Source: Candidatus Woesebacteria bacterium RIFCSPHIGHO2_02_FULL_42_20 (GTDB lineage Bacteria; Patescibacteriota; Microgenomatia; UBA8517). From it: a stretch of 64,000 bases of DNA. Under the pieces are notes generated by a model, which saw nothing but the letters and a program-made list of their open reading frames with translations, ran no database searches and had not been told where the DNA came from. The translations under genes were made by a program, and so were the position numbers. The stretch is taken from positions 64,692 through 128,691 of the forward strand of contig MGGS01000013.1 of NCBI GenBank assembly GCA_001792535.1. The letters are read 5' to 3'. Positions 7,606 to 27,256 of this stretch are shown piece by piece (positions within the stretch are counted from its first letter, which is position 1; every line of letters starts with the position of its first letter).

Positions 7606-8073
7606 ATGAAACTTGTTGTTCAAAGAGTAAAAAGAGCGGAGGTTAAGGTGGGCAATAAAGTTGTTGGGAAAATTGGCAAGGGGTTGTTTATTTTAGTGGG
7701 AATTGGAAAAGCTGATACAGCGAAAGAAGCAAATGCTTTGGCGGCGAAATTAGAGAAGATGAGAGTGATGAGCGATCCCACTTCGCCGAGGCTTCGAGGG
7801 GCAAGTGGGAAAGATAAAATGAACTTTAGTGTACGAGACGTAGGAGCGGAAGTTTTGGTTGTTTCTCAATTTACGCTTTATGCAAATACCGCGGATGGAA
7901 ATAGACCTTCGTTTATAGAAGCGGCTGATCCGAAAAAGGCAAAGGAAATCTACGAATACTTTATAGACGAACTCAAGAATTTGGGTTTAAAAGTTGAAAC
8001 AGGAAGTTTTGGAGAATATATGAATATAAAAACAGAACTTGACGGACCTGTTACTATAGTACTCGAAAGTTAA
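7606..8073 (+). CDS. dtd: D-aminoacyl-tRNA deacylase
   Basis: MKLVVQRVKRAEVKV… N-terminus and the SQFTLYAN motif. 155 aa, the size expected for Dtd. Confidence 0.9.
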   Translation: MKLVVQRVKRAEVKVGNKVVGKIGKGLFILVGIGKADTAKEANALAAKLEKMRVMSDPTSPRLRGASGKDKMNFSVRDVGAEVLVVSQFTLYANTADGNRPSFIEAADPKKAKEIYEYFIDELKNLGLKVETGSFGEYMNIKTELDGPVTIVLES

Positions 8074-15633: not shown

Positions 15634-17304
15634 ATGAAGGCTATTAAGTGGAAGGTTTTGGGAAAACTCCAAAACTCCAAAACTCCAAGCAACAAAAAAG
15701 AGGAGATTGTAAATATTCTTTTGGAAAATCGAGGTATTAAGAAGAGACAAGAGCGAGAGGAATTTTTAAACCCAATACACCCCCGTGATTTGACTTTAGA
15801 AGAATTAAAAGTAGATAAGACTCAGGTTGAAAAAACAATCCGGAGAATTAAGGCGGCAATTGTAAATAAAGAAAAAATCATTGTTTACGGCGACTACGAC
15901 GCGGATGGAGTTTCGGGAACAGCTATTCTCTGGGAAGCGTTATGGGGATTAAAAGCAGATGTATTACCTTACATTCCGGAAAGGTTTTCGGAGGGCTATG
16001 GCCTTAATGCAGAGAGTGTAAAAAATTTGAAATCAAAATATAAAAATTTAAAGTTAATTATTACGGTCGATAACGGAATAGTTGCAAGAGACGCTGTTAA
16101 AAAAGCAAAGGACATCGGAATCAATGTAATCATTACAGATCATCACGAAAAAGGCGAGAAATATCCCGAAGACGCATTTGCGGTGATTCATACAAAGGAA
16201 ATTGGCGGTGCGGGAATAGCCTGGATTTTATCGCGGGAGATAAATAAAGATTTCGCTCTAGGCCAACTTGACCTGGCGGCTATGGGGACGATAGCAGACC
16301 AACTACCGTTAATTGGGCCAAATAGAAGTTTCGCTAAATACGGTATCCTCGCTTTGCGAGAAACAAAAAGACCGGGATTAAGAGAAATTTATAATCTTGC
16401 TTCAATTGATCCTAAATCCATTGATACATATCATGTTAATTTTATGATTGCTCCGCGAATTAACGCTATGGGCAGACTTGCACATGCCATTGAATCACTC
16501 AGACTTCTGTGTACAAAAAGCCCCACAAAGGCTCTTGAACTATCTACCTTGCTCGAGAAAACCAACAGAGACAGACAAAACTTAGTTGAGGAGACGGTCG
16601 TGCACGCGAAAGAGAAAGCCTTAAAAACCAATGAGAAAATAATAATTTTACATAGTGATAATTACCACGAAGGAATTATTGGTCTGGCTGCAAGCCGTCT
16701 TGTTGAAGAGTTTTATCGTCCGTCTATAGTTTTATCTATTAAAGGCGATATTGCAAAAGCCTCGGCCAGATCTGTTAGTGGTTTTAACATAATTAAAGCA
16801 ATTAGGTTGGTGAATGAATATTTGATCGATGGCGGCGGCCACGAAATGGCCGCCGGATTTTCAATAGAGACCAAAAATATTGAAATTTTTGCAAAACAAC
16901 TGATTCGTAAATCAAGAACTCTGTTGACGGAAAGTCTGCTGCAAAAAAGGCTCAAAATAGATGTGGAACTGGAACTGTCTGATGTAAGTTTTGATTTAAT
17001 TGATAAAATCAAACAACTTGAGCCGTTCGGAATCGGCAACCCTGCCCCTGTTTTCATGACGAGTAATGTACAGGTAACCGATGCGAGACTCGTCGGCCGT
17101 GAAGGTAAACATTTGAAAATAAAAGTTGTCAAAGGCAATATTGCTCTTGACGCGATTGCTTTTGGCAGGGGGGATATGTATTCGCAACTTGGTAAAGGCT
17201 CGGAGATCGATATTGCTTACAGCATCGAAGAGAATGAGTGGAATGGGACAAAGTCAATTCAACTAAAGGTCAGGGATATCAGATTTTTGAAAAGAGATAA
17301 GTAA
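15634..17304 (+). CDS. recJ: single-stranded-DNA-specific exonuclease RecJ
   Basis: DHH motifs (VYGDYDADGVSGTAIL, ITDHH), a DHHA1 domain and a C-terminal OB region. The N-terminus contains an AAAACTCC x3 tandem repeat. Confidence 0.9.
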   Translation: MKAIKWKVLGKLQNSKTPSNKKEEIVNILLENRGIKKRQEREEFLNPIHPRDLTLEELKVDKTQVEKTIRRIKAAIVNKEKIIVYGDYDADGVSGTAILWEALWGLKADVLPYIPERFSEGYGLNAESVKNLKSKYKNLKLIITVDNGIVARDAVKKAKDIGINVIITDHHEKGEKYPEDAFAVIHTKEIGGAGIAWILSREINKDFALGQLDLAAMGTIADQLPLIGPNRSFAKYGILALRETKRPGLREIYNLASIDPKSIDTYHVNFMIAPRINAMGRLAHAIESLRLLCTKSPTKALELSTLLEKTNRDRQNLVEETVVHAKEKALKTNEKIIILHSDNYHEGIIGLAASRLVEEFYRPSIVLSIKGDIAKASARSVSGFNIIKAIRLVNEYLIDGGGHEMAAGFSIETKNIEIFAKQLIRKSRTLLTESLLQKRLKIDVELELSDVSFDLIDKIKQLEPFGIGNPAPVFMTSNVQVTDARLVGREGKHLKIKVVKGNIALDAIAFGRGDMYSQLGKGSEIDIAYSIEENEWNGTKSIQLKVRDIRFLKRDK

Positions 17305-17498
17305 TTTTCTGGGTTTAGGATTTCCTGTGTATGTCAAAAGTGTGAAATAATATCTTGTCTTTTTGTATCGAGCTATTTCTCGTGGGCCTAATCGATCTTT
17401 TCTCATGTATCGCAAAATTTTATCTTGGTATTGCTTACCTCGATAGTTTGACTGTTTTTCACTAATGCGAACTAGATTATATCAAAGATAAAGTATAG

Positions 17499-17531
17499 CC
17501 CCTATAGTATTGCGCTAGGGGATTTAGATGG
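17499..17531. repeat. left copy (R1) of a 33-bp imperfect direct repeat flanking the six-gene island
   Basis: CCCCTATAGTATTGCGCTAGGGGATTTAGATGG is 28/33 identical to 23083..23115. It contains a CCCCTA…TAGGGG hairpin. Confidence 0.75.
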
Positions 17532-17545
17532 AAACTTTGTGCATT

Positions 17546-18601
17546 TTAAGGGGTACCTGTTCTTACCAATTGTCTTGCGAATAATTCTGTACCAAAACCA
17601 GATACGACCGTTGTTTCCTTCAGGTTAGAGGAAAGCCTTGCAACCCAATCTACTACGCCACCGTCAATAAAATCAACATCACCAACAAAGATTGTAAAAA
17701 CTTGTCCACTGTAATGTCCCCTTCCATACAATCTATCTAGTTGAAATGTATAAGTGACGTTTGGCTTGGGTGGTAAGCTTGTTAATACTCTTTCTATGGT
17801 TAAAAGTTCACCACCTATGTTTAACCCACCTGCTTGCTTTTGTGTTTCTGGCAAATTTATTATTTTCTGAGGTAATCTGCCTTGTAGGTTGTCAGCAAAT
17901 GATTCCGTCAAAAACTTGCCCTGTGTTTCCAGTTCGGCCGAACTTAAACTTGAAGAACTTTCTGGTAGTATTTTATTTGCTATTCCAACATTACCAACAC
18001 AAACCTCTAAATTTGATCCTGGTGAAATTTCACCAATAGCATTCAAGTAATAATCTATAAGATTTCTTAGAATTGAGATTTCTGGCGATCTATTATTGGT
18101 GTGTCTTAAAATCGAATCTGCTGTACCGAACATTTCAAAAGAAGTGAGATAATTTTTATCAGTATAACGTTGCAACCTCACACATTTATGAACTGCTCCA
18201 AGTTTAATTCCATTCTTGTTACCTTGTGATCTTCTTCTGTACACTTCCGTAGCTAATTGAGTGGTAGGGTCTGCAACTACATCTGCAGTTCTACCCGTAA
18301 CATGCGCCACTTTTAATGGTGATGTTCTTGCCAAAATCGAGTCCAACCCGAAAGGACTAAGAGCAGATAGATAAATCATTTCTCTGCCCCCCCGTTTCTC
18401 AAAGAGGATATTACCAATATTATGTAACACAAGTGCAGCTTCTCCGCTCAATGGTTGTCCGAAATCCCCATGGATTAGCCTTCTAATCGCCTGCAAATCA
18501 ATCTCTGCTTTACTAATTTTTCTGTGAAGTGCAGCTCTATAATCGGTATCGATTTTATCATTATTTAGATCTACACCTGCGACTCTATTTTCAATAGTCA
18601 T
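17546..18601 (-). CDS. hypothetical protein (351 aa), terminal gene of the island operon
   Basis: Long ORF packed 4 nt from the upstream methyltransferase. No motif recognised by eye (no P-loop, no radical-SAM Cys cluster). Confidence 0.4.
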   Translation of the reverse strand: MTIENRVAGVDLNNDKIDTDYRAALHRKISKAEIDLQAIRRLIHGDFGQPLSGEAALVLHNIGNILFEKRGGREMIYLSALSPFGLDSILARTSPLKVAHVTGRTADVVADPTTQLATEVYRRRSQGNKNGIKLGAVHKCVRLQRYTDKNYLTSFEMFGTADSILRHTNNRSPEISILRNLIDYYLNAIGEISPGSNLEVCVGNVGIANKILPESSSSLSSAELETQGKFLTESFADNLQGRLPQKIINLPETQKQAGGLNIGGELLTIERVLTSLPPKPNVTYTFQLDRLYGRGHYSGQVFTIFVGDVDFIDGGVVDWVARLSSNLKETTVVSGFGTELFARQLVRTGTP

Positions 18602-18604
18602 AAA

Positions 18605-19414
18605 TTAATTTAACTTCTTGGCTACTAAAATACACTGTTCTGAATCTATGTTTAAAGGTTCACCTTTGTAGCTTCCAAATGCCCTCAGAAAATGTAAACC
18701 TACACTTTCACACATCCTAATCAACTCTGAAAGTGTGTAGAATCTTATAACCATGTCAGTTCTCCGGACTTCACCATTAGGTTTTATTTTTGTGCGAGTT
18801 TCATGGTTGCGTGAAGTTAAAAAGTCGAATTTACGTTCAATTAGTACTTTTGTTCCGTCAGAATAGCTAACCCAATCTCGGGCTTGGTATATTCTCATAA
18901 TCCTTTCCCTATTAAAAAAATCCAACAAAAACCCCCCTCCATTTTTAAGTGACGTAGCTGCATTTTGAAGCACTCTTAAGTCGTCCTTCTCATCTTTAAA
19001 ATAACCAAAAGATGTAAACATGCTTATTACCACATCAAACCTGTTTTTGAAAGATACTCTACGCATATCAATTTTTATTAACTTAACCTTAAGTTTTAAC
19101 TTTATGGCATCGGATTTAGCCTTATTCAAATACCTCTTATTAATATCAATGCCTGTCAAAATATAACCTCTTTTAGCCAGCTCTAGCGTATGTCGACCAC
19201 TACCACAGGCTAAGTCAAGAATTTTATCGCCTCTTTTAAGGGTTAAGGCTTTTTCTAAAAAGTCAGCTTCTTTTTTTGTTCTATCTAAAGATATATATTC
19301 TGAAAATTCTTTAAAATAATCTTCGTTAAAGAATGGGTTAGTTTCTTCGTACCAATTATCATCATCTTTTCCCCGAAAATTATTATTACTATCTCTTCCT
19401 AATAATTTAGTCAT
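18605..19414 (-). CDS. class I SAM-dependent methyltransferase
   Basis: Motif I ILDLACGSGRHTLELAKRG, with the acidic post-I and motif II regions present. Confidence 0.7.
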   Translation of the reverse strand: MTKLLGRDSNNNFRGKDDDNWYEETNPFFNEDYFKEFSEYISLDRTKKEADFLEKALTLKRGDKILDLACGSGRHTLELAKRGYILTGIDINKRYLNKAKSDAIKLKLKVKLIKIDMRRVSFKNRFDVVISMFTSFGYFKDEKDDLRVLQNAATSLKNGGGFLLDFFNRERIMRIYQARDWVSYSDGTKVLIERKFDFLTSRNHETRTKIKPNGEVRRTDMVIRFYTLSELIRMCESVGLHFLRAFGSYKGEPLNIDSEQCILVAKKLN

Positions 19415-19417
19415 TAT

Positions 19418-20416
19418 TCAAATTACTGATCTGGAAATTTGTATTTTTCTTGTCTTAGTATCAATTAAACAGCTTGTTCCAATCGGAATAGTTGCTATCG
19501 GGTCAGTATGGCCAAAACTGACATCATATAGAACTGGTATATTTAGGCCTTTTAATATATCTTCTAAAACATCTTCTAATCTATCTGCTTTATTAAACCC
19601 AGAATTAGTTGCAAATTTGCCAAATACAATGCCCTTTATTTTACTAAATACACCTTGCTGTCTTAACCCTGTTAGATAATGATGTAACTGAGCAGTGTTT
19701 GTTTCCTCGCTTCCCTCCAAAAATAAAATGCGCCCTATAAAAGATGGACAATATGGAGTATCAATAACCGAACCTAAAGTCTCTATATTCGCCGCTACAA
19801 TTTTACCGCGTGCAGAACCCACTCTAAATACTCTTACACCATCGTTCTTTTTTATCTTTCTGTGTTCGTCGTCTTTCCTTAGATAAAAGGCATCATCCGC
19901 ATAATATTTTGGTGTTCCGATAACAGTTTTTTTCTTAGGCTTAACGCAAGTATCGGAAAAAGAACTCCATGTATATTCAAAGAAATCGGGTTTAGCAAAA
20001 GATATTACAGAAGGCCCCATAAAAGTTATCAGACCTGTTTTTTTATAAATCCCCAGTAGGAGAGAAGTTGTATCGGAAAATCCTATAAAAATTTTAGGAT
20101 TTCTTTTTATTAAATCATAATTTATATATTCCAACAATTGATTAGAGTTATATCCTCCCCAAAATGTCATTATGCAACTTATTTCTTTGTTCTCAAAAAA
20201 TTCGTGAATTGCGCGAACTCTATCTTCAATGGTTCCTGCTGAGTGCCCGTAAATTTTCCTACATTGAGGATGTTCTACAACCTTCAAGCCATGGTTTTTC
20301 AATATTCTATAACCCTTTTGTATTACCTCTTCTTTACATTCTGTTATTGGTATGGAAAGTGCAATAACACCAATCGTTTCACCATTATTTATTCGAGGAG
20401 GTTTTATTATCTTCAT
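19418..20416 (-). CDS. S66 family LD-carboxypeptidase (MccF/LdcA-like)
   Basis: …GETIGVIALSIPI…FIGFSDTTSLLLGI… The nucleophile serine sits in a GFSD context, and the protein is ~330 aa, typical of peptidase S66. Confidence 0.7.
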   Translation of the reverse strand: MKIIKPPRINNGETIGVIALSIPITECKEEVIQKGYRILKNHGLKVVEHPQCRKIYGHSAGTIEDRVRAIHEFFENKEISCIMTFWGGYNSNQLLEYINYDLIKRNPKIFIGFSDTTSLLLGIYKKTGLITFMGPSVISFAKPDFFEYTWSSFSDTCVKPKKKTVIGTPKYYADDAFYLRKDDEHRKIKKNDGVRVFRVGSARGKIVAANIETLGSVIDTPYCPSFIGRILFLEGSEETNTAQLHHYLTGLRQQGVFSKIKGIVFGKFATNSGFNKADRLEDVLEDILKGLNIPVLYDVSFGHTDPIATIPIGTSCLIDTKTRKIQISRSVI

Positions 20417-20422
20417 AAGTAA

Positions 20423-21226
20423 TTAAAATAAGATAATTTCTCGAAAATTCCTTTTTCTTAATATAAACACTCCGTATGACAAATATTTCATATTTTCACT
20501 GAATAACGTCATGATATTGAACATTCTGTTTATTGCGGCTTCTTCAATATTAGCCTGCCATCTCTTTTGACGAACAAGCTCGGTACAGTAATTCAGTATT
20601 TTCTCCTGGGTAACAGGCTCTGTCTTATTTTTATAACAATAATACATTTCAAGGTCCGCTTTGCTATAGTGATCTATCCAGTACTTTATTGGCCAGGGTA
20701 GTATTTTTGTTCCCATTAAGTGATTGATTTTATCAATCAACTTCTTGGGAGGTTTAGAATGGTAATAAAAATTGATATCGCCAACAAAACCCCAATCTTT
20801 GGTGGTTCTTCTGTATTCGCTTAATGCCCGTGGTATATCAGTGATGAAGGCTGTAGAGCCACCACTCATTACCAAATCAAATTCCCCATTTTCAAATGGT
20901 AAACTCTTTCCGTCTGCTTTAATAAAATTTACATTTCTCTTTAGATCAGAGTGATATTCATCGAGCATCCTGTTGGCTGTTTTTATCATTTTCCCGCTTA
21001 TATCTATCCCCGTTACTTTGCAATGAGTTAAGTGGGCAATCTCAAAAGAACAAAACCCAGTATTACAACCAACATCCAGAACTCTTGAGTTCCTATCTAA
21101 AAAGGTATTTTGTACGAGTTTTTTTATAGAATCTTTTCCTCCGGGGGGACGGTTGATCTCATCGAGCGTAGCTATAAGTTTAACGTAACTAAGTCTTTCT
21201 ATTAATTCTGGTGTAATCTTATCCAT
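20423..21226 (-). CDS. class I SAM-dependent methyltransferase
   Basis: Motif I VLDVGCNTGFCSFEIA. Confidence 0.7.
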   Translation of the reverse strand: MDKITPELIERLSYVKLIATLDEINRPPGGKDSIKKLVQNTFLDRNSRVLDVGCNTGFCSFEIAHLTHCKVTGIDISGKMIKTANRMLDEYHSDLKRNVNFIKADGKSLPFENGEFDLVMSGGSTAFITDIPRALSEYRRTTKDWGFVGDINFYYHSKPPKKLIDKINHLMGTKILPWPIKYWIDHYSKADLEMYYCYKNKTEPVTQEKILNYCTELVRQKRWQANIEEAAINRMFNIMTLFSENMKYLSYGVFILRKRNFREIILF

Positions 21227-21237
21227 TTACCAATTAT

Positions 21238-21618
21238 TCATTGTAGTTTTCTTGTTATTTCCTTACGTGTCACACTCGATGGACCAAATAAGGTTGAGAT
21301 TTTGTTAAATAATTCTCGTGCTTTATTACTATTGTCTTTTGAGTAGTTACATATAAACACGTTCAAGCTAACGTATCTATATTCAGGCCAAATATGGAAA
21401 GCAATATGAGACTCCGCCAAGGCAACTACTCCAGTTATTCCTCCATTTCCAAACTGATGATAGTACGAACCCAATTCTAAAAAACCTACTGACTTAATTA
21501 ACAAAGAGATTAAAGTCTGTATTTTCCTTTTAGATAAGTTGTTGATTTTTTTTTCATCGTTTCCCCACAAATCACCTACAATTTCTAGACCAACAATTTC
21601 AATTTTTTTACTCATCAT
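21238..21618 (-). CDS. pyruvoyl-dependent S-adenosylmethionine decarboxylase-like protein (SpeH/SpeD small type)
   Basis: …FGNGGITGVVALAESHIAFHIWPEYRYVSLNVFIC… aligns with the SpeH self-processing site (…[23 protein letters not shown]…). The ES|H serinolysis site is conserved. Confidence 0.75.
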   Translation of the reverse strand: MMSKKIEIVGLEIVGDLWGNDEKKINNLSKRKIQTLISLLIKSVGFLELGSYYHQFGNGGITGVVALAESHIAFHIWPEYRYVSLNVFICNYSKDNSNKARELFNKISTLFGPSSVTRKEITRKLQ

Positions 21619-21623
21619 ATCTG

Positions 21624-22670
21624 TTAAAAAGTAAATTTCTGACCATTAAATCTTGGTAAAGTTTGCATGTCTCGAATGTCGTTATGTTTTAGTAACCATA
21701 GAAAAAATCTCTCTACCCCTAGCCCGAAACCAGAAGTTTGAACAGGCACCTCATCCTTAATTGTTATATACCATTTATAAGGAGTTTCATCTATTTGATG
21801 TAAAGTAAGGGCTTCCCGCACTTCTTGTCCAGAAAGGTGGCGTTCTCCTGATCCAATAGTCTCACCAATACCCATCAGGAGGTCTGCATTAAGAGCTATC
21901 TTTTTATTTGCTCCAGGCGCAAATTTTTGATAGAAGGGAACAGCCATATGATCAAAATTGGTAAGCCAGACATATCCACCAAAATATTTCATCAATTCCG
22001 CTTCCCCTTTGCTATTAATATTTCGGTAAAGCGCATAACTCTCTACAAAATCGGGGTTGTTATCTAGAATTCTGACTGCCTCTTCAAAGGTGCATTTTGG
22101 TATGTTATATCCGTGCTGTGAGATATACTTAATATGTTCAGTAGTACCAGCAACAGATAATATCTCTTTTTCTAAAGTTTTAAGAAAGTGATTAGAAAGA
22201 TAAACGATATATTGCTCACAAAGTTTAATTACATTATCTAGTGTACCAATAATTTCTGCCTCGGAGTGGTAAAACTGGCCAAGATGACGCTCATCGGCTG
22301 ACTCGCCTCTAAATGATGGCGCGACATAATAAACGCCTTCTTTGTTTATTCGACAAGAGTATTCTAGAAAAAATTGCATGGAATCAGCCAAATAAGTATC
22401 AATTCCAGCAATTTGTACGTGCACTGGCACAGAGTCGCTACCCAAACCCATGGGACTGGAAATTGATCCAGTTGTAATTGGAAGTTGTACAGATTTAATA
22501 CCTCTCTGGCGGTAAAAGCTGACAGTTGCAAAGTTGAATTCGTCCTGTAATAAAGCCAATACTCTATACCATTCGTTTCTTAATGGAATTTTGTAATGAG
22601 TGGACAAATCTTTCCAAGATTTTGGTGGTTTTATTTTATTGTTCATATTAATAAAAATTAACTTGACCAA
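21624..22670 (-). CDS. stand-alone class II aminoacyl-tRNA-synthetase catalytic-core paralog (AsnA/AsnRS/AspRS-like; no anticodon-binding domain)
   Basis: Motif 2 PSFRGESADERHLGQFYHSEAE and motif 3 GFGLGVERFFLWLL of subclass IIb synthetases. At 348 aa it is too short to carry an OB anticodon-binding domain. Confidence 0.65.
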   Translation of the reverse strand: MVKLIFINMNNKIKPPKSWKDLSTHYKIPLRNEWYRVLALLQDEFNFATVSFYRQRGIKSVQLPITTGSISSPMGLGSDSVPVHVQIAGIDTYLADSMQFFLEYSCRINKEGVYYVAPSFRGESADERHLGQFYHSEAEIIGTLDNVIKLCEQYIVYLSNHFLKTLEKEILSVAGTTEHIKYISQHGYNIPKCTFEEAVRILDNNPDFVESYALYRNINSKGEAELMKYFGGYVWLTNFDHMAVPFYQKFAPGANKKIALNADLLMGIGETIGSGERHLSGQEVREALTLHQIDETPYKWYITIKDEVPVQTSGFGLGVERFFLWLLKHNDIRDMQTLPRFNGQKFTF

Positions 22671-23082
22671 ACAGTTATAAAGTCAATTTGTGTATTATAG
22701 ATATGAAAATTGTAATTAACAAACATTTTCTTCACCCGTTATTCATTTTGTGTTGTGCTGTCGATGAAATGTTTGATCTTTCGACTTGCCCTGTGTGAAA
22801 ACATAATTTGAAAACCCGTGTCTTTGGGTCTGTATTTGCAATGCTTTTACAAGATGCAGAGCTGTTGTTTCTTGTGGGTATAAATGATCTTTCTTCATAA
22901 CATTACATTAAAAAACCTCCTTTCAGGAGGCTTGATTCAAAGAAAGTTTATTACATCAAACCTCCGCCTTGGTCCGATTGACAAGGCGAGAGAGATGAAT
23001 GTAAAAGACAAGATATTTACGCATACGAGGGTATTATAATCTCTCCCCATAATTTTGTAAAGAAATTTTGTAAAGTGGGAAG

Positions 23083-23115
23083 CTCCTATAGTATTGCACT
23101 AGAGGATTTGGGTGG
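23083..23115. repeat. right copy (R2) of the 33-bp direct repeat
   Basis: CTCCTATAGTATTGCACTAGAGGATTTGGGTGG abuts the TATAAT of the rel/spoT gene. Confidence 0.75.
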
Positions 23116-23121
23116 TATAAT
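23116..23121 (+). promoter_or_regulatory. -10 box (TATAAT) 6 nt upstream of the rel/spoT ATG; probable leaderless transcript
   Basis: GGTGGTATAATTTGCCAATG: the ATG at 23128 falls where transcription initiation is expected. There is no SD. Confidence 0.4.
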
Positions 23122-23127
23122 TTGCCA

Positions 23128-24946
23128 ATGTCGATAGCTGAGAATAGAAGCTTTTTTGCCTCTCCTGAGATTGATCCCCAATCCAGACTGGGGATTCTTA
23201 ATATGAATGATGACGACTTAACTGGTCAAGTTCTTCAGGCGTATAAGGTAGCTGAATCGGCTCATAGAGGGCAGAGGAGGTTCTCGGATGAGCCTTATAT
23301 AAATCACTGTTTGGCGACTTTGAGAATTTTGGAAGCTATGGGCATTGAGGATTCAGAGATGCTTATGGCAGCCTTGTTGCATGATGTGGTTGAAGATGAT
23401 ACCGGAATCAATTTGGCAGCGCTAGAGCAGGAATTCGGCAATAGCGTTGCCCAACTGGTTGACGGGGTAACTAAACTACACACCGGAGATCAAGAAACAG
23501 CAGAAGCTTTAAGAGTTGTATCTTTATCTTACCTTGAGCCCAAGGTTGCAATTCTGAAGCTTGCTGATCGATTGCATAACATGATGACTTTGGGGAGCGT
23601 ACCGGACAATGAAAAGAGGATTTAGAAAGGCTAGGGAAACTTTGGAAGTCTACGCCCCTCTGGCCGAGTCACTGGGGATGTATGAAGTAAAAACTTTACT
23701 TGAAGATCTTGCTTTTGCACATATTGCCCCAGATCAGTTCGTACCGGTAAAAAGAAAGGTGGATCAGGATCCCAGATTAGATGATAAGTTTTTAGCATAT
23801 TGGATATCTAGGATTCAGGCGATACTTGACGAGAAGGGAATTAAAGGCTAGATTGAAGTCGCTCGGAATGGCTATTTTACTATAGAGACTAAGCGAAAAA
23901 ACTTGGGCAGTGCTGATACAAGGGGAATTGACGATCTAGTAAGTATAAGGGTGATCCTTCCAACACTCGATGATTGTTACCTGGCGAATGGTTTGTTGCA
24001 TATAAATCTTGGCGAAATTGTGGATTATAGTAGATTTGATGAATTCGTGGGAGCCAATGCCAGAGTCAATGGCTACTCTGCACTCCAGACAACCCTTGAG
24101 ACAAATCAGGGATCTTTAGAGGTTGCCTTGGTGACGCCGCAAATGGAAGAATTTAACCGCTGGGGAGTTGTCAGTTTACTCAGGCGTGGAGAGAGAGATC
24201 TTGAACATTTTACGCTGAAATCGGCTTTCGGGTCGGATGGAAAGGTTTTGTTTTTACCTAAACTGGCGACTGGAGTTGACTTGGTTTGTGCCATGGGGTC
24301 TAGGCTTTTGGCTAATGCCAATGCGATAAAAATAGACAATAGAGAGTTTCCGTTGACGGTAGTTGTTCCCAATGCGGCCAGATTTGAGGTAATTCTTGGT
24401 AATGAAGCAAGAATTGCCCCACTCCCGGAGCTTCTGGATTATTGTCTCCCCGCGACAAAGAGAATAATACTGGGACAGCTGGAAGTTGCGGAAAGATACG
24501 AACTGGCTAGTAAAGGCAAAAAAATATTGGAAGGAGTTCTTTCTCCTCGGGGAATTTTGGATCTCGGGGATGTCGAAGGAGTGGTCAGGGATTTGATCTA
24601 TTCACACGGTAGCCTGGAAGGCTTATATCTCAAAGTCGGATCTGGAGTAGTAAGCAGAGAAGAGGTTGCTCACTGGCTGGATGCTCACGGAATAACTAAA
24701 GATCGGTTGAAGTTAACAACAGTTCGTGTTGCAGGACTTGATCAGCCGGGTATCTTAGATGACCTGATACATCTGATTCGCAGGCAAGGCGATGGTGTTA
24801 ATATTAAAGGAATAGACCTACAAGGGGGAGACGATAACAGGTTTACATTGCGCTTAGTTGTTGAGCAGCTGGAATCTTCGTCGGAAGAAGCTATTCGGGT
24901 GGAAATAGGAAAAGATAGCCGTTTTGATGAATGGGTTGTGGTTTGA
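23128..24946 (+). pseudogene. RelA/SpoT-family (p)ppGpp synthetase/hydrolase homolog disrupted by a +1 frameshift (~23611-23625) and an in-frame TAG (23849-23851)
   Basis: Three consecutive ORFs (23122-23625, 23609-23851, 23903-24946) together cover the HD hydrolase domain (HRGQRRFSDEPYINHCL…LLHDVVEDD), a degenerate synthetase region (…DLVSIRVI…NGYSALQT), TGS and a C-terminal ACT domain (VRVAGLDQPGILDDL). The frame changes at an A-run. Confidence 0.65.
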
Positions 24947-24970
24947 GTTTCGAAATTCGACTTCTATTTT

Positions 24971-25225
24971 TTGCGTTTTGGGGTGTGGCGTAGTATCATG
25001 GCGGTCATGAAAGAGAATTTTTTGGGTCGACTATTTGGCCATCCTAGAGCTGGAAGTACACCGGCGAAGATTGCTGAAGAGGTTGCGGTTCCTGAAAGTG
25101 CGCTCCCCTATGGTTTATGGGATGGAAAACCAAGTCTTACGGAACATGGCCGCTTGGTGGATGTAACGCTTTTTTCAGCAGCGCCTTCTCTGAATGCTAA
25201 CTCCGGAGGTTCAGGAGGTGATTGA
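24971..25225 (+). CDS. hypothetical small protein
   Basis: 84-aa ORF with a Gly-rich C-terminus and no recognisable motif. It is more GC-rich than its neighbours. Confidence 0.25.
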   Translation: MRFGVWRSIMAVMKENFLGRLFGHPRAGSTPAKIAEEVAVPESALPYGLWDGKPSLTEHGRLVDVTLFSAAPSLNANSGGSGGD

Positions 25226-25244
25226 TTTTGTCAAGAATGAGAGG

Positions 25245-25440
25245 TATCATATTTCCAAACCATTTGAGCTTGACTAACATCGAGCAAGGTGAAGGAAGAA
25301 AGCCTTTTGGCAAATAGACCCTTCCGGAGGCGCCCGTAAAAGCGCATAAATGAAGTAAAATTAAGGGTGGCACCGTCCTGAGCGGAATCGAAGGACCCCT
25401 GAAGATTTCTAATATTTAGAAGTTTTCAGGGGTTTTTCTG
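25245..25440 (+). promoter_or_regulatory. T-box riboswitch leader of aspS
   Basis: Conserved T-box sequence AATTAAGGGTGGCACCG (25359-25375). It is followed by an intrinsic terminator CCCCTGAA…TTCAGGGG-TTTTT (25396-25437). A GGTGA K-turn-like element and an AGAGG box lie upstream. The specifier codon was not confidently assigned. Confidence 0.6.
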
Positions 25441-25453
25441 TTAAAATGAAATT

Positions 25454-27256
25454 ATGGAAAGAACATTAGCCAAAGAAACAATTAGTAAAGTCGGTCAAAA
25501 GATCTTGCTCAAAGGCTGGGTAGCGACTATCCGCGATCACGGGAAGATTACTTTTTTGGATTTGAGGGATAGAAGCGGTAAAGTCCAATGTGTAGGTCAG
25601 GGTTTGTCAAAAATAACTACCGAAAGCGTGGTTGAAATTGAAGGCATAGTCGCAAAGCGTCCCGAAAAATTGGTTAACAAAAACTTGGAAACCGGAACAG
25701 TTGAAGTCCAGATCGAAAAGCTTGACGTCTTATCGGTAGCGCAAGATTTGCCAATAGACATGGGTAAAGAAGATTTGGATGTTTCTTTGCCGACTCTGCT
25801 TGACTTCCGCCCTTTGACTCTGCGAAATAAAAAAGTTAACTCCATCTTTAAAGTTCAGGAGGTTGTTATTGATTCTTTCAGAGAAGCCTTAAAGAAAAAA
25901 GATTTTTTTGAATTCCAGGCTCCAGTTTTTATTCCTGAGATTGCAGAGGGAGGAGCAGAAGTATTCAAAGTTCCTTATTTTAGCCACGAAGTCTACTTGT
26001 CTCAAAGCCCCCAGCTTTATAAGCAAATTTTAGTAGGCGCATATGAAAGAGTTTTTTCGGTGAATAAGACTTTGCGGGCAGAGCCGTCGGTGACTACCCG
26101 TCATTTAACGGAGGTTACTACACTTGATGCAGAGTTTGGCTTCATAGATAACTGGACCCAAGTGAAAGATATGGCCGAATACACAATAAAATATATGTTG
26201 AAAGCAGTTGAGGACAAATGCGGTGATATATTGGAAAGTTTTGGGGTTACTATACCAAAGTTTACGGACAGTATTCCGACAATAAAACTTCGTGAAGCAC
26301 AGGAAATTATTTATAGACGAACCAAAAGGGATAATAGAAATGAACCGGATTTGCAACCAGAAGATGAGAGAGAGATCTGTAAGTGGTCACTAGAGGAAAA
26401 GGGGAGCGACTTAGTCTTTGTTTCGCATTATCCAACCAAAAAAAGGCCGTTTTATACATATCAAGAGCCAGAAGACCCTGAATTTACCCAAAGTATGGAT
26501 TTGCTTGGCAGGGGTACGGAATGGATGACCGGTGGAAGAAGAATTAATGATTATGAGTTTTTGATTAAGATGGCAAAGGAGAGAAAAGTTGACCCTGAAA
26601 AACTTGATCTTTATTTGCAGGCCTTTAAGTTCGGAATGCCGCCAGAGGGCGGGTTTTCATTCGGATCAGAAAGGGTGACGATGCACATTCTTGGACTTGC
26701 TAACATCCGAGAAGCCTCACTTTTCCCGAGAGATATGGAAAGAGTAGATATTAGGCTATCAACGATACGAAAAGAAAGCCGAGTTTTGAAGGACGAAAGA
26801 AAAGATATATTTGAGATAATTGTCGATTCATTGGACTCGAAGGACATCCCCTTTGAAAAATATGAACACGAGCCGGTTTATACAAGTGAACAGGCTGCTA
26901 AAATTCGGGGAACTGATATTCATCAGGGAGCAAAAGCGCTGGTCTTACAGGCGGACAAAGATTTTATTTTATATGTTTTACCCGCTGACTTGCAGGCCAA
27001 TTTGGAAGGACTCCAAAATAAACTAAAGGTGAAAAAGTTAAGAATGGCATCCAAAGATTCTGTTAAAGCAAAAACAGGCCTTGAGGTTGGAGCAGTTCCG
27101 CCATTAGGATCATTCGTTGGACTTAAAACCTATGTCGACCCAAGGCTTTCTGAAAATAAAGAGATTGTTTTCAATGCTGGTCGTCACGACCGATCTATAA
27201 AAATGAGATATTCTGACTTCGTTAGACTCGAAAAACCTAAAATTATTCAGTTGTAA
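25454..27256 (+). CDS. aspS: aspartyl-tRNA synthetase (archaeal/eukaryal-type core) fused to a C-terminal YbaK/ProX-like aminoacyl-tRNA deacylase domain
   Basis: N-terminal OB fold, motif 2 LRAEPSVTTRHLTEVTTLDAEFGF and motif 3 GGFSFGSERVTMHILGLANIREASLFPRD end the core near residue 433. Residues ~440-600 align with YbaK (IPFEKYEHEP…KALVLQADKDFILYVLPADLQANLEGLQNKL…KAKTGLEVGAVPPLG…EIVFNAGRHDRSIKMRYSDFVRL). Confidence 0.85.
   Translation: MERTLAKETISKVGQKILLKGWVATIRDHGKITFLDLRDRSGKVQCVGQGLSKITTESVVEIEGIVAKRPEKLVNKNLETGTVEVQIEKLDVLSVAQDLPIDMGKEDLDVSLPTLLDFRPLTLRNKKVNSIFKVQEVVIDSFREALKKKDFFEFQAPVFIPEIAEGGAEVFKVPYFSHEVYLSQSPQLYKQILVGAYERVFSVNKTLRAEPSVTTRHLTEVTTLDAEFGFIDNWTQVKDMAEYTIKYMLKAVEDKCGDILESFGVTIPKFTDSIPTIKLREAQEIIYRRTKRDNRNEPDLQPEDEREICKWSLEEKGSDLVFVSHYPTKKRPFYTYQEPEDPEFTQSMDLLGRGTEWMTGGRRINDYEFLIKMAKERKVDPEKLDLYLQAFKFGMPPEGGFSFGSERVTMHILGLANIREASLFPRDMERVDIRLSTIRKESRVLKDERKDIFEIIVDSLDSKDIPFEKYEHEPVYTSEQAAKIRGTDIHQGAKALVLQADKDFILYVLPADLQANLEGLQNKLKVKKLRMASKDSVKAKTGLEVGAVPPLGSFVGLKTYVDPRLSENKEIVFNAGRHDRSIKMRYSDFVRLEKPKIIQL

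Follow-up and report, generated by a model that had tools for sequence, protein, structure and literature searches.

The stretch of DNA analysed here (hereafter the window) comprises 64,000 nucleotides of contig MGGS01000013.1 from Candidatus Woesebacteria RIFCSPHIGHO2_02_FULL_42_20, a bacterium of the candidate phyla radiation (CPR), and carries on its minus strand an operon of six genes (22646..17546), designated g1 to g6 [Table 1], whose composition recalls the gene clusters for agrocin 84 and microcin C. All six genes are co-directional and are separated, from g1 to g6, by 5, 11, 6, 3 and 3 nt. An earlier note on g1, made from the letters of the sequence, had placed this gene at the head of an operon with enzymes using S-adenosylmethionine (SAM), which our analysis bears out in that an S-adenosylmethionine decarboxylase (AdoMetDC) and two class I methyltransferases follow it at gaps of 3-11 nt; the MccF-type S66 peptidase g4 and the HisRS/HisZ-like core g6 had escaped recognition. 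The operon is bordered by a convergent recJ on one side and a divergent relA/spoT remnant on the other, in flanks made up of ordinary housekeeping genes (secDF, the CCA-adding enzyme gene and recJ versus aspS and gltX). Its GC content (positions 17546-22670) is 0.353 versus 0.417 and 0.425 in the flanks, a difference which, together with the housekeeping nature of these flanks, is consistent with insertion by horizontal transfer. The same operon was recovered in independent assemblies, on at least 24 contigs in all, and its six open reading frames (ORFs) are intact and identical between independent assemblies.

Table 1. Features of the operon and its leader, with coordinates in the window
Feature	Position	Strand	Length and basis
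g1, AgnA-type truncated AsnRS-like core	21624..22646	-	340 aa; PF00152, fold, AgnA homology
g2, SpeH-type S-adenosylmethionine decarboxylase (AdoMetDC)	21238..21618	-	126 aa; PF02675, TIGR03330
g3, AgnB1/MccD-like class I SAM-dependent transferase	20423..21226	-	267 aa; homology to AgnB1 and to MccD-position genes
g4, MccF-type S66 serine peptidase, candidate self-immunity/processing hydrolase	19418..20416	-	332 aa; MccF similarity
g5, second class I methyltransferase, weakly AgnC3-like	18605..19414	-	269 aa; Methyltransf_25/31/11
g6, second truncated class II aaRS core, HisRS/HisZ-like	17546..18601	-	351 aa; AlphaFold and Foldseek
Promoter-like site TTGTTA-17-TATAAT directly upstream of g1	22694..22722	-	consensus scan 10/12, pattern match only
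Second promoter-like site in the leader; may lie outside the operon	23061-23033	-	consensus scan 11/12
Hairpin and T-run in the leader; may lie outside the operon	22933-22913	-	sequence pattern

The longest ORF at the g1 locus (22670..21624, minus strand) starts with a TTG at 22670, translates to 348 aa and contains both motif strings that the earlier note had quoted as motifs 2 and 3, APSFRGESADERHLGQFYHSEAEIIG and SGFGLGVERFFLWLLKHN. The length of 348 aa given there holds for this longest ORF, but translation probably begins with the ATG at 22646: all homologues, including P0001 (99% identical, 340 aa), start at the equivalent of this codon and an independent gene call at the same locus (L101) likewise has 340 aa, from which g1 most likely spans 22646..21624 and has 340 aa. 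The Pfam domain tRNA-synt_2 (PF00152, class II D/K/N) covers residues 30-340 (E=1.1e-31) and the anticodon-binding OB fold (PF01336, tRNA_anti-codon) found no Pfam match in g1, in agreement with the prior description of the interval 21624-22670 as a class II aminoacyl-tRNA synthetase (aaRS) core devoid of an anticodon-binding domain. The AlphaFold model of g1 (pLDDT 89.7, pTM 0.90) superimposes on the catalytic domains of AsnRS from T. thermophilus (9sh8) and P. horikoshii (1x54) with TM scores of 0.82-0.83, root-mean-square deviations of 2.5-2.9 A and 24-26% identity; AspRS ranks below AsnRS in this comparison and the solved archaeal AsnA falls outside the top 50. Motif 2 (R121/E123), the acidic Mg2+ ligands (D263/E270), motif 3 (R321) and the fold, by which a class IIb (D/N/K) catalytic core is recognized, are thus all present. 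The protein nevertheless falls short of the cutoffs for canonical AsnRS and AspRS, scoring 121 versus 342.6 bits with TIGR00457 (asnS), 131 versus 414 with NF003037 and 80 versus 353 with NF003483, and the region of the AsnRS flipping loop ('EG..ELF') is replaced in g1 and its relatives by an invariant SSPMGLGSDSxPV. Judged by its sequence, g1 is a class IIb aaRS paralogue that has been truncated but has kept its ATP/Mg2+ machinery intact.

The family of g1 is that of AgnA from plasmid pAgK84 of Rhizobium rhizogenes K84, where the agrocin 84 cluster resides; the sequence of this plasmid was reportedly published by Kim et al. in 2006, and the AgnA family is known genetically. A search of annotated plasmids aligned g1 with AgnA (annotated 'Agrocin84-synthetase') at 38.1% identity over 333 of 340 aa (98%; E=4e-87). 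The two proteins share the loop S-S-P-x-G-x-G-S-D-S-x-P, a YLADS(M/L)QF motif, the Glu/Arg pair of the amino-acid pocket and all ATP/Mg ligands. In a neighbour-joining tree that also covered AsnRS, AspRS and LysRS cores, AgnA and all relatives of g1 form a single clade (100/100 bootstraps) separated from these cores by a long branch, with AgnA in a basal position; the grouping of this clade with AsnRS rather than AspRS was recovered in only 35/100 bootstraps. We inspected 32 sites of g1 in 26 members of the clade, comprising the signature loop, the amino-acid pocket (the AsnRS-type pair E137/R277, and L102/E103) and all ATP/Mg ligands, and found them identical throughout except for M98L in AgnA and for position 278, which carries H278C in AgnA and N in Xenorhabdus, that is, in the two LeuRS-linked clusters. 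That this near-invariance holds whichever aaRS is linked (Leu, Pro, Phe, Lys, Asp, His-like or Ala-like) argues that the AgnA-type enzyme performs a constant step on a constant substrate. On these sequence comparisons g1 is a member of the AgnA family of truncated AsnRS paralogues. In reviews, AgnA figures as a truncated homologue of AsnRS that has no anticodon domain and is proposed to join a pentanamide precursor to AMP via a phosphoramide bond; they stress that the pathway is unknown. The general idea of the earlier note, that of an adenylate-forming ligase acting on an acceptor other than tRNA, is upheld by these findings, but the comparators it offered (AsnA, EpmA/PoxA and amino-acid:carrier-protein ligases) give way to AgnA: models of bacterial AsnA and of EpmA/PoxA (TIGR00462, genX) found no match in g1 at E<=0.01 (Pfam, NCBIfam), and an amino-acid:carrier-protein ligase is unlikely in an operon without a carrier protein. 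That g1 acts on a non-tRNA acceptor, and is tied functionally to the SAM-using enzymes, is almost certain.

Similarity to the agrocin 84 and microcin C systems extends to the partners of g1. The g3 protein is 32% identical over 265 aa (97% of its length, E=1e-49) to the methyltransferase encoded next to agnA (AgnB1 by position; unnamed in the record), 31% identical over 191/267 aa (E=4e-27) to the methyltransferase at the MccD position of an E. coli operon of the order ThiF-MFS-MTase-GNAT-S66 (mcc), and 28% identical over 99% of its length to a Yersinia homologue of the latter. Among 72,556 plasmids, genes of the AgnB1 type come first in the list of g3 matches and MccD-position genes directly after; as far as its sequence tells, g3 may transfer a methyl, an aminocarboxypropyl or an aminopropyl group. 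The g4 protein contains both S66 domains (PF02016, 4e-35; PF17676, 1e-28), matches MccF and MccF-like chains in the PDB at E=1e-50 to 1e-55 versus 1e-12 to 1e-26 for LdcA-type chains, and is 33% identical to E. coli MccF and 32% identical (E=1e-52) to AgnC5, which is annotated 'MccF-like protein'; its Ser/Glu/His triad contexts GFSD, FLEGS and FGHT align with those of MccF. The two partners by which linkage of the AgnA family was judged, an AgnB1-type methyltransferase and an MccF-like peptidase, are therefore both found in the operon, as g3 and g4. The second methyltransferase, g5, resembles AgnC3 over a shorter stretch (28% over 119 aa, E=8e-8) and clusters with methyltransferases of four other loci (L064, L022, L014, L088) that match AgnC3 more strongly.

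The remaining SAM-related gene, g2, satisfies both PF02675 (7.7e-22) and the SpeH-type equivalog model TIGR03330 (77.4 bits versus a cutoff of 75.65), and its product contains LAESHIAFHIWPE, which we take to be the Glu-Ser self-cleavage context. By tblastn, AdoMetDC was not found in the other 99 loci. A look-up based on g6 retrieved a further CPR locus, L104, in which an AdoMetDC gene stands at the same position as g2 and is adjoined by genes for a SpeE-like aminopropyltransferase and ProRS; the L104 homologues of g6, g3 and g2 are 46%, 57% and 49% identical to those of the window.

The last gene, g6 (hypothetical protein A3D84_02975), gave no match to Pfam, to NCBIfam (including hisS and hisZ) or, with phmmer, to the PDB. 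Its AlphaFold model (pLDDT 83.5, pTM 0.83) finds HisRS, HisZ and the HisRS-like domain of GCN2 as top Foldseek matches (E=1.4e-13, probability 1.0, TM 0.5-0.63) at identities to HisRS/HisZ structures of 12-17%. The protein ends with the catalytic core and has no anticodon-binding domain. With a fold of the HisRS/HisZ type in g6, the operon encodes two truncated class II aaRS paralogues. Conserved residues of the g6 family (R142-x-Q144, R290..G293..Y297 and D313-G-G..W319) resemble HisRS motifs; a 'DGGxxxW' element takes the place of 'GGGRYD', presumably the corresponding HisRS motif 3 element, so that the motif 3 arginine is apparently missing. Like HisZ, g6 combines this fold with the lack of an anticodon-binding domain, and it keeps a HisRS-like motif 2 and HisA-like residues; hisG, the partner of hisZ, was not found in the neighbourhood of the operon. 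Genes for g6-type proteins accompany AgnA-like genes at 11 loci or more.

The signature of the AgnA-like family is present in 290 of about 185,600 species-representative genomes, at about 50-60% identity and in at least eight phyla: other CPR bacteria (Shapiro-, Dojka- and Saccharibacteria), Clostridia, Bacilli, Erysipelotrichia/Tenericutes, many actinomycetes, Chloroflexota, Legionella, one deltaproteobacterium and Rikenellaceae. Neighbourhoods were counted by tblastn within 10 kb of the AgnA-like gene at the best 80 loci of these species-representative genomes. An S66 peptidase gene lies nearby at 58/80 loci (72%), or 42 of the 55 loci with at least 5 kb of sequence on both sides, linkage being gauged by its decay with distance. 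A class I methyltransferase accompanies 63 loci (79%) and at least one other aaRS or aaRS-like gene 54 (68%), and 45 of the 80 combine S66 peptidase, methyltransferase and a second activating enzyme; the nearest partner copies are concentrated in the first 2.5 kb, and the g3-type methyltransferase gene lies at a median distance of 37 bp (30 loci). The earlier note had been prepared to abandon its proposal should g1 cluster within AsnA clades that occur without the partner genes; instead, the clade almost always keeps a methyltransferase and an S66 peptidase in its company.

Around this conserved core the second activating enzyme varies. Recurrent partners include AlaRS-core-like proteins (25 of the 80 loci), ATP-grasp amino-acid ligases (24), AMP-binding enzymes (16), HisRS-like proteins (11), B12-radical-SAM enzymes (9) and proteins of the g6 type (8), as well as PheRS alpha/beta, ProRS, GlyRS, major facilitator superfamily (MFS) or ATP-binding cassette (ABC) exporters, a P-loop kinase and a gene resembling nucleosidases for methylthioadenosine (MTA) and S-adenosylhomocysteine. 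The type of the second class II-like protein tracks the full-length aaRS encoded in the same cluster. Sub-threshold HisS/HisZ-like paralogues accompany ProRS at L007, L028, L029 and L057 and in CPR at L104, and ProRS-like paralogues accompany LeuRS, both in the agrocin 84 cluster (AgnC1) and on a Xenorhabdus bovienii megaplasmid that encodes an AgnA-like protein, a methyltransferase, an S66 peptidase, a nucleoside phosphorylase, LeuRS, a ProRS-like paralogue and an MFS protein. At four loci from metagenome-assembled genomes (MAGs) of gut Bacilli and Clostridia (L037, L039, L080, L086), a short (about 320-340 aa) AlaRS-core-like partner occurs beside two class IIa aaRS genes that fall into one cluster, and the gene tested, that of L080, encodes a full GlyRS (NF003211, 608 bits versus a cutoff of 312), which suggests a glycyl-adenylate-mimic variant with duplicated target genes. 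Close CPR relatives of g1 (66-70% identity) are encoded in cassettes of only four genes, in the order methyltransferase, S66 peptidase, g6-like and AgnA-like, within unrelated flanks; together with the low GC content of the operon in the window, this arrangement indicates that the gene set behaves as a mobile cassette.

Comparison with known systems makes clear what this cassette retains and what it lacks. The agrocin 84 cluster has 17 genes and is plasmid-borne, whereas the operon of the window has six and is chromosomal in a CPR host. In both, the agnA-type gene comes with a g3-like methyltransferase, AgnB1 following agnA directly, and with an MccF-like protein (AgnC5) and a further methyltransferase (AgnC3). 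The second, remotely class IIa-like protein of the agrocin 84 cluster is AgnC1, which reviews call remotely ProRS-like; a hidden Markov model of the g6 family does not detect it, and g6 is without a detectable Agn counterpart. Absent from the operon are AgnB2, experimentally a resistant LeuRS according to the same reviews, the exporter AgnG and the genes for sugar, deoxy-nucleoside and pentanamide tailoring, whereas AdoMetDC is an addition. Of the microcin C system the operon matches MccF (g4) and the MccD position (g3), but it has neither the ThiF-like MccB nor a ribosomal precursor peptide, MFS pump or GNAT protein, and its adenylating enzyme is aaRS-derived instead. In the microcin C pathway, MccD, of the class I methyltransferase fold, moves a 3-carboxy-3-aminopropyl group from SAM to the phosphoramidate with release of MTA, and MccE1 then decarboxylates it; the resulting aminopropyl group increases toxicity and evades some immunity proteins. 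Decarboxylation would come before transfer in the operon of the window, through decarboxylated SAM, whereas it follows transfer in microcin C. The ascamycin cluster offers another truncated synthetase, the AlaRS-like AcmF, which aminoacylates a nucleoside sulfamate with Ala-tRNA from the resistant AlaRS AcmD, giving an aminoacyl-adenylate mimic that AcmE hydrolyses. AcmF/AcmD and AgnB2 are the established examples for a match between second enzyme and full-length aaRS. AcmF has lost the residues for ATP binding and amino-acid activation and needs aminoacyl-tRNA, whereas g1 keeps all of them, and the full-length partner aaRS and sulfamate linker of ascamycin contrast with an operon that has no such aaRS and from which a phosphoramidate is expected.

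Based on homology, folds, catalytic residues, gene linkage across phyla and operon structure, from which we infer enzymatic activities, product and target, we propose with a probability of roughly 60% that the operon is a horizontally acquired, minimal cassette of the agrocin 84/microcin C type for the synthesis of, and self-protection from, a non-hydrolysable mimic of an aminoacyl-adenylate, namely an adenosine N-acyl phosphoramidate, that would inhibit an aaRS. The g1 enzyme would carry out the ATP-using step common to all clusters and build the adenylate/phosphoramidate (N-P) core, the role proposed for AgnA. As the variable module, g6 would select or transfer the aminoacyl part, possibly proline by a loose analogy with the ProRS-linked relatives. 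The product would be alkylated by g3, with g2 supplying decarboxylated SAM for an aminopropyl decoration like that of microcin C, and g5 would add a methyl group. By analogy with MccF, g4 may hydrolyse the acyl-N bond of the toxic compound and so provide self-immunity, processing or both. A chemical parallel to the product that proline-linked clusters may make is phosmidosine, the N-prolyl, O-methyl phosphoramidate of 8-oxoadenosine. By chemical analogy only, a product of this type is what an AgnA-like enzyme, an O-alkylating methyltransferase, a proline module and ProRS would be expected to yield (L007, L028, L029, L057, L104); the window has no ProRS, and its AdoMetDC suggests aminopropyl rather than methyl. 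Phosmidosine has been described as a phosphoramidate nucleotide antibiotic of Streptomyces, and no gene cluster for it was found in the literature searched.

Several observations weigh against this proposal. In contrast to pAgK84 and the Xenorhabdus locus, neither an exporter nor a resistant aaRS is linked to the operon of the window, the sole exporter-type ABC protein of the window being encoded 30 kb away. The lack of both S66 peptidase and methyltransferase at 13/80 loci indicates that the family may have other roles. The apparent loss of the motif 3 arginine means that g6 may be non-catalytic in the manner of HisZ. A ProRS target is suggested by one CPR locus (L104) and four Firmicutes loci whose partner is more HisRS-like, and most loci of the g6 type have no ProRS nearby. 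Lastly, the SpeE-type enzyme that accompanies AdoMetDC in L104 belongs to a class that normally aminopropylates amines, so the acceptor need not be the phosphoramidate oxygen.

The alternative that best withstands the evidence, although we regard it as unlikely, is that the pathway ends in an aminoacylated or aminopropylated small molecule without toxicity, for instance a conjugate of amino acid and polyamine or a component of the envelope or osmolyte pool. In such a pathway g1 and g6 would act as ATP-dependent ligases, g2 together with a SpeE encoded elsewhere would produce polyamine, and g4 would serve as a recycling amidase. AdoMetDC in the operon and the SpeE-like gene of L104 speak for it, as do the missing exporter and resistant aaRS and the fact that S66 enzymes include murein LD-carboxypeptidases; CPR genomes, moreover, rarely carry antibiotic clusters. 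However, g4 is far nearer to MccF and AgnC5 than to LdcA, g3 is nearest to AgnB1 and then to MccD, and related loci repeatedly include the extra full-length aaRS, exporters and tailoring genes typical of clusters for aaRS inhibitors. The absence of AdoMetDC from the other 99 loci further indicates that polyamine chemistry is an add-on rather than the core function.

A second alternative, which we hold to be very improbable, is that the cassette is mainly protective or decaying, g4 being kept as a resistance to microcin C- or agrocin-type toxins of neighbouring bacteria and the biosynthetic genes being relics. Stand-alone MccF homologues that confer resistance are common, and the lack of an exporter and of a resistant aaRS and the adjacent RelA/SpoT pseudogene would fit a decaying locus, but the six tightly packed ORFs are intact and the same in independent assemblies, and g1 conserves all its catalytic and signature residues. 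That several diverged CPR lineages still keep the four-gene core, at 62-72% identity, points to purifying selection acting on the set as a whole.

Finally, g1 could be a housekeeping asparagine synthetase A of the archaeal type with unrelated neighbours. Its best NCBIfam matches are indeed 'asparagine synthetase A' equivalogs, its homologues are labelled 'asparagine synthetase A' or 'asparaginase', its AsnRS-type E137/R277 pair could bind Asn or Asp, and the genome uses a non-discriminating AspRS. The scores, however, stay below every AsnA cutoff (NF005055, 260 versus 389 bits; NF005053, 246 versus 322; other archaeal-type sub-models under PRK06462, 70 versus 309 and 66 versus 368), and five g1 homologues from four lineages (Bacillus, Paludifilum, Streptomyces and CPR) also remain under all of them (best 282 versus 322), so that the database name 'asparagine synthetase A' rests on no passing model. 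The solved archaeal AsnA (3p8t) matches g1 at E=1e-8 versus 5e-21 for AsnRS; the archaeal AS-AR (Pyrococcus; 3p8t/1nnh) is, like g1, a stand-alone class IIb core without anticodon domain, but g1 differs from it in model scores, sequence, fold ranking, genomic context and distribution. An organism that makes Asn-tRNA in a tRNA-dependent manner has, in addition, less need of free asparagine synthesis. Given model cutoffs, fold ranking, scattered distribution and synteny in a tight operon, and its monophyly with AgnA, we dismiss a housekeeping AsnA as the least credible of the readings considered.

Beyond the operon itself, and more tentatively than for the proposed N-acyl-phosphoramidate cassette, AgnA-type enzymes might represent a second route to the N-P bond that is independent of MccB and that, with AgnB1/MccD-like and MccF-like enzymes and an exchangeable second module, would define a large, almost unexplored family of nucleotide antibiotics directed at tRNA synthetases, spread over about 290 sequenced species of at least eight phyla, of which the Woesebacteria operon would be a minimal, aminopropyl form. 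In the mechanism of MccB, Asn is the nitrogen donor. A possible version of the AgnA route would have g1 adenylylate Asn as nitrogen donor, the MccF-like enzyme free adenosine 5'-phosphoramidate and the variable module acylate it, a scheme that would account for a constant Asn-type pocket and S66 peptidase alongside a changing target aaRS. The literature searched appears to contain no description of how broad and modular the AgnA/AgnB1/MccF-like triad is, of its occurrence in CPR bacteria as cassettes of four to six genes or of the variant with a HisZ-like protein and AdoMetDC. Agrocin 84, which AgnA is proposed to build, is the antibiotic used in the biocontrol of crown gall; with the triad being widespread and modular, its four- to six-gene versions are small enough for reconstitution in vitro and make the mechanism of phosphoramidate formation directly testable. 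Should the products be aaRS inhibitors with exchangeable amino-acid modules, they would form a sizeable untapped class of antibiotics. The proposal, if true, would also add a rare predicted toxin pathway in the ultra-small CPR bacteria and correct a systematic mis-annotation as 'asparagine synthetase A' or 'asparaginase'.

Other candidate functions were considered for the locus and its surroundings and set aside. The 450-nt leader upstream of g1 (22671-23121, minus strand) could be an attenuator, a small RNA or the site of a small protein; a riboswitch or T-box found no support, Rfam having given no match at E<=1 within 17000-25600. The 52-aa ORF of the leader (22896-22738, minus strand), with its Asn-Asn end, came into question as a ribosomal precursor peptide and was set aside, no evidence of its conservation having been found and MccB being absent. 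An anti-phage defence function likewise found no support, PADLOC having returned nothing for g1, g2, g4 and g6 and generic methyltransferase matches only for g3 and g5.

Beyond the leader, three ORFs stand in place of the RelA/SpoT gene (HD_4 and RelA_SpoT; 23122-24946, plus strand), whose reading frame shifts within a run of A at about 23609-23625 and is interrupted, in the part coding for the synthetase domain, by a TAG in frame (23849-23851). Four independent assemblies (L100-L103) agree letter for letter over the segment with these lesions (23560-23940), which identifies a real pseudogene or a recoded gene. Intact RelA/SpoT homologues adjoin the AgnA-like gene in 11/80 loci, on the same strand and immediately upstream in gut Bacilli and divergently in the CPR locus L010; possible reasons for this adjacency are a regulatory link with the stringent response and a hot spot for insertion.

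Downstream of the RelA/SpoT remnant lies the full AspRS (25454-27256, plus strand) whose presence in the window the earlier note had correctly reported. It is of the non-discriminating archaeal type (NF003483, 445 bits versus a cutoff of 353) and includes the OB fold. Its C-terminus is fused to a trans-editing domain of the YbaK/ProX type (PF04073, residues 472-592), an unusual fusion in that this domain normally clears mischarged tRNA-Pro or tRNA-Cys. Archaeal-type AspRS genes are also neighbours of the cassette in the CPR locus L001, and in two Clostridiales loci (L055, L063) they immediately precede the AgnA-like gene.

The last two loci belong to a minority context shared with L083, L034 and L053 (Clostridia and Bacilli MAGs), in which S66 peptidase and methyltransferase are absent and the AgnA-like gene is followed by genes for an amidohydrolase and for a conserved protein some 220 aa long, then by about seven conserved genes with the archaeal-type AspRS at the edge; the function in this context may differ from that of the main group. 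A different departure is seen on plasmids of about 200 kb from Pantoea agglomerans (L097, 8746-10029), where an AgnA-like enzyme 48% identical to g1 lies inside a 427-aa protein annotated 'GNAT family N-acetyltransferase' and appears to be fused to an acetyltransferase domain. Only an MFS transporter gene follows, making this a would-be two-gene version that recurs in six P. agglomerans plasmids.

Two protein families without Pfam match recur within 5 kb of AgnA-like genes and may be further unrecognised enzymes of the pathway: u11 (about 300-330 aa), in 8/80 loci including CPR, and u12 (about 280-445 aa), in 14/80 loci, all from actinomycetes; together they account for L008, L010, L036, L038, L039, L053, L068, L086 and L089 plus the actinomycete loci. 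In L104, the g6-like gene is directly preceded by an ORF of 73 aa (7735-7956, plus strand) that has an internal repeat (IEQYIKDHL / IAQYIKGHL) and no family match; its product could serve the cassette as a small partner, carrier or precursor.

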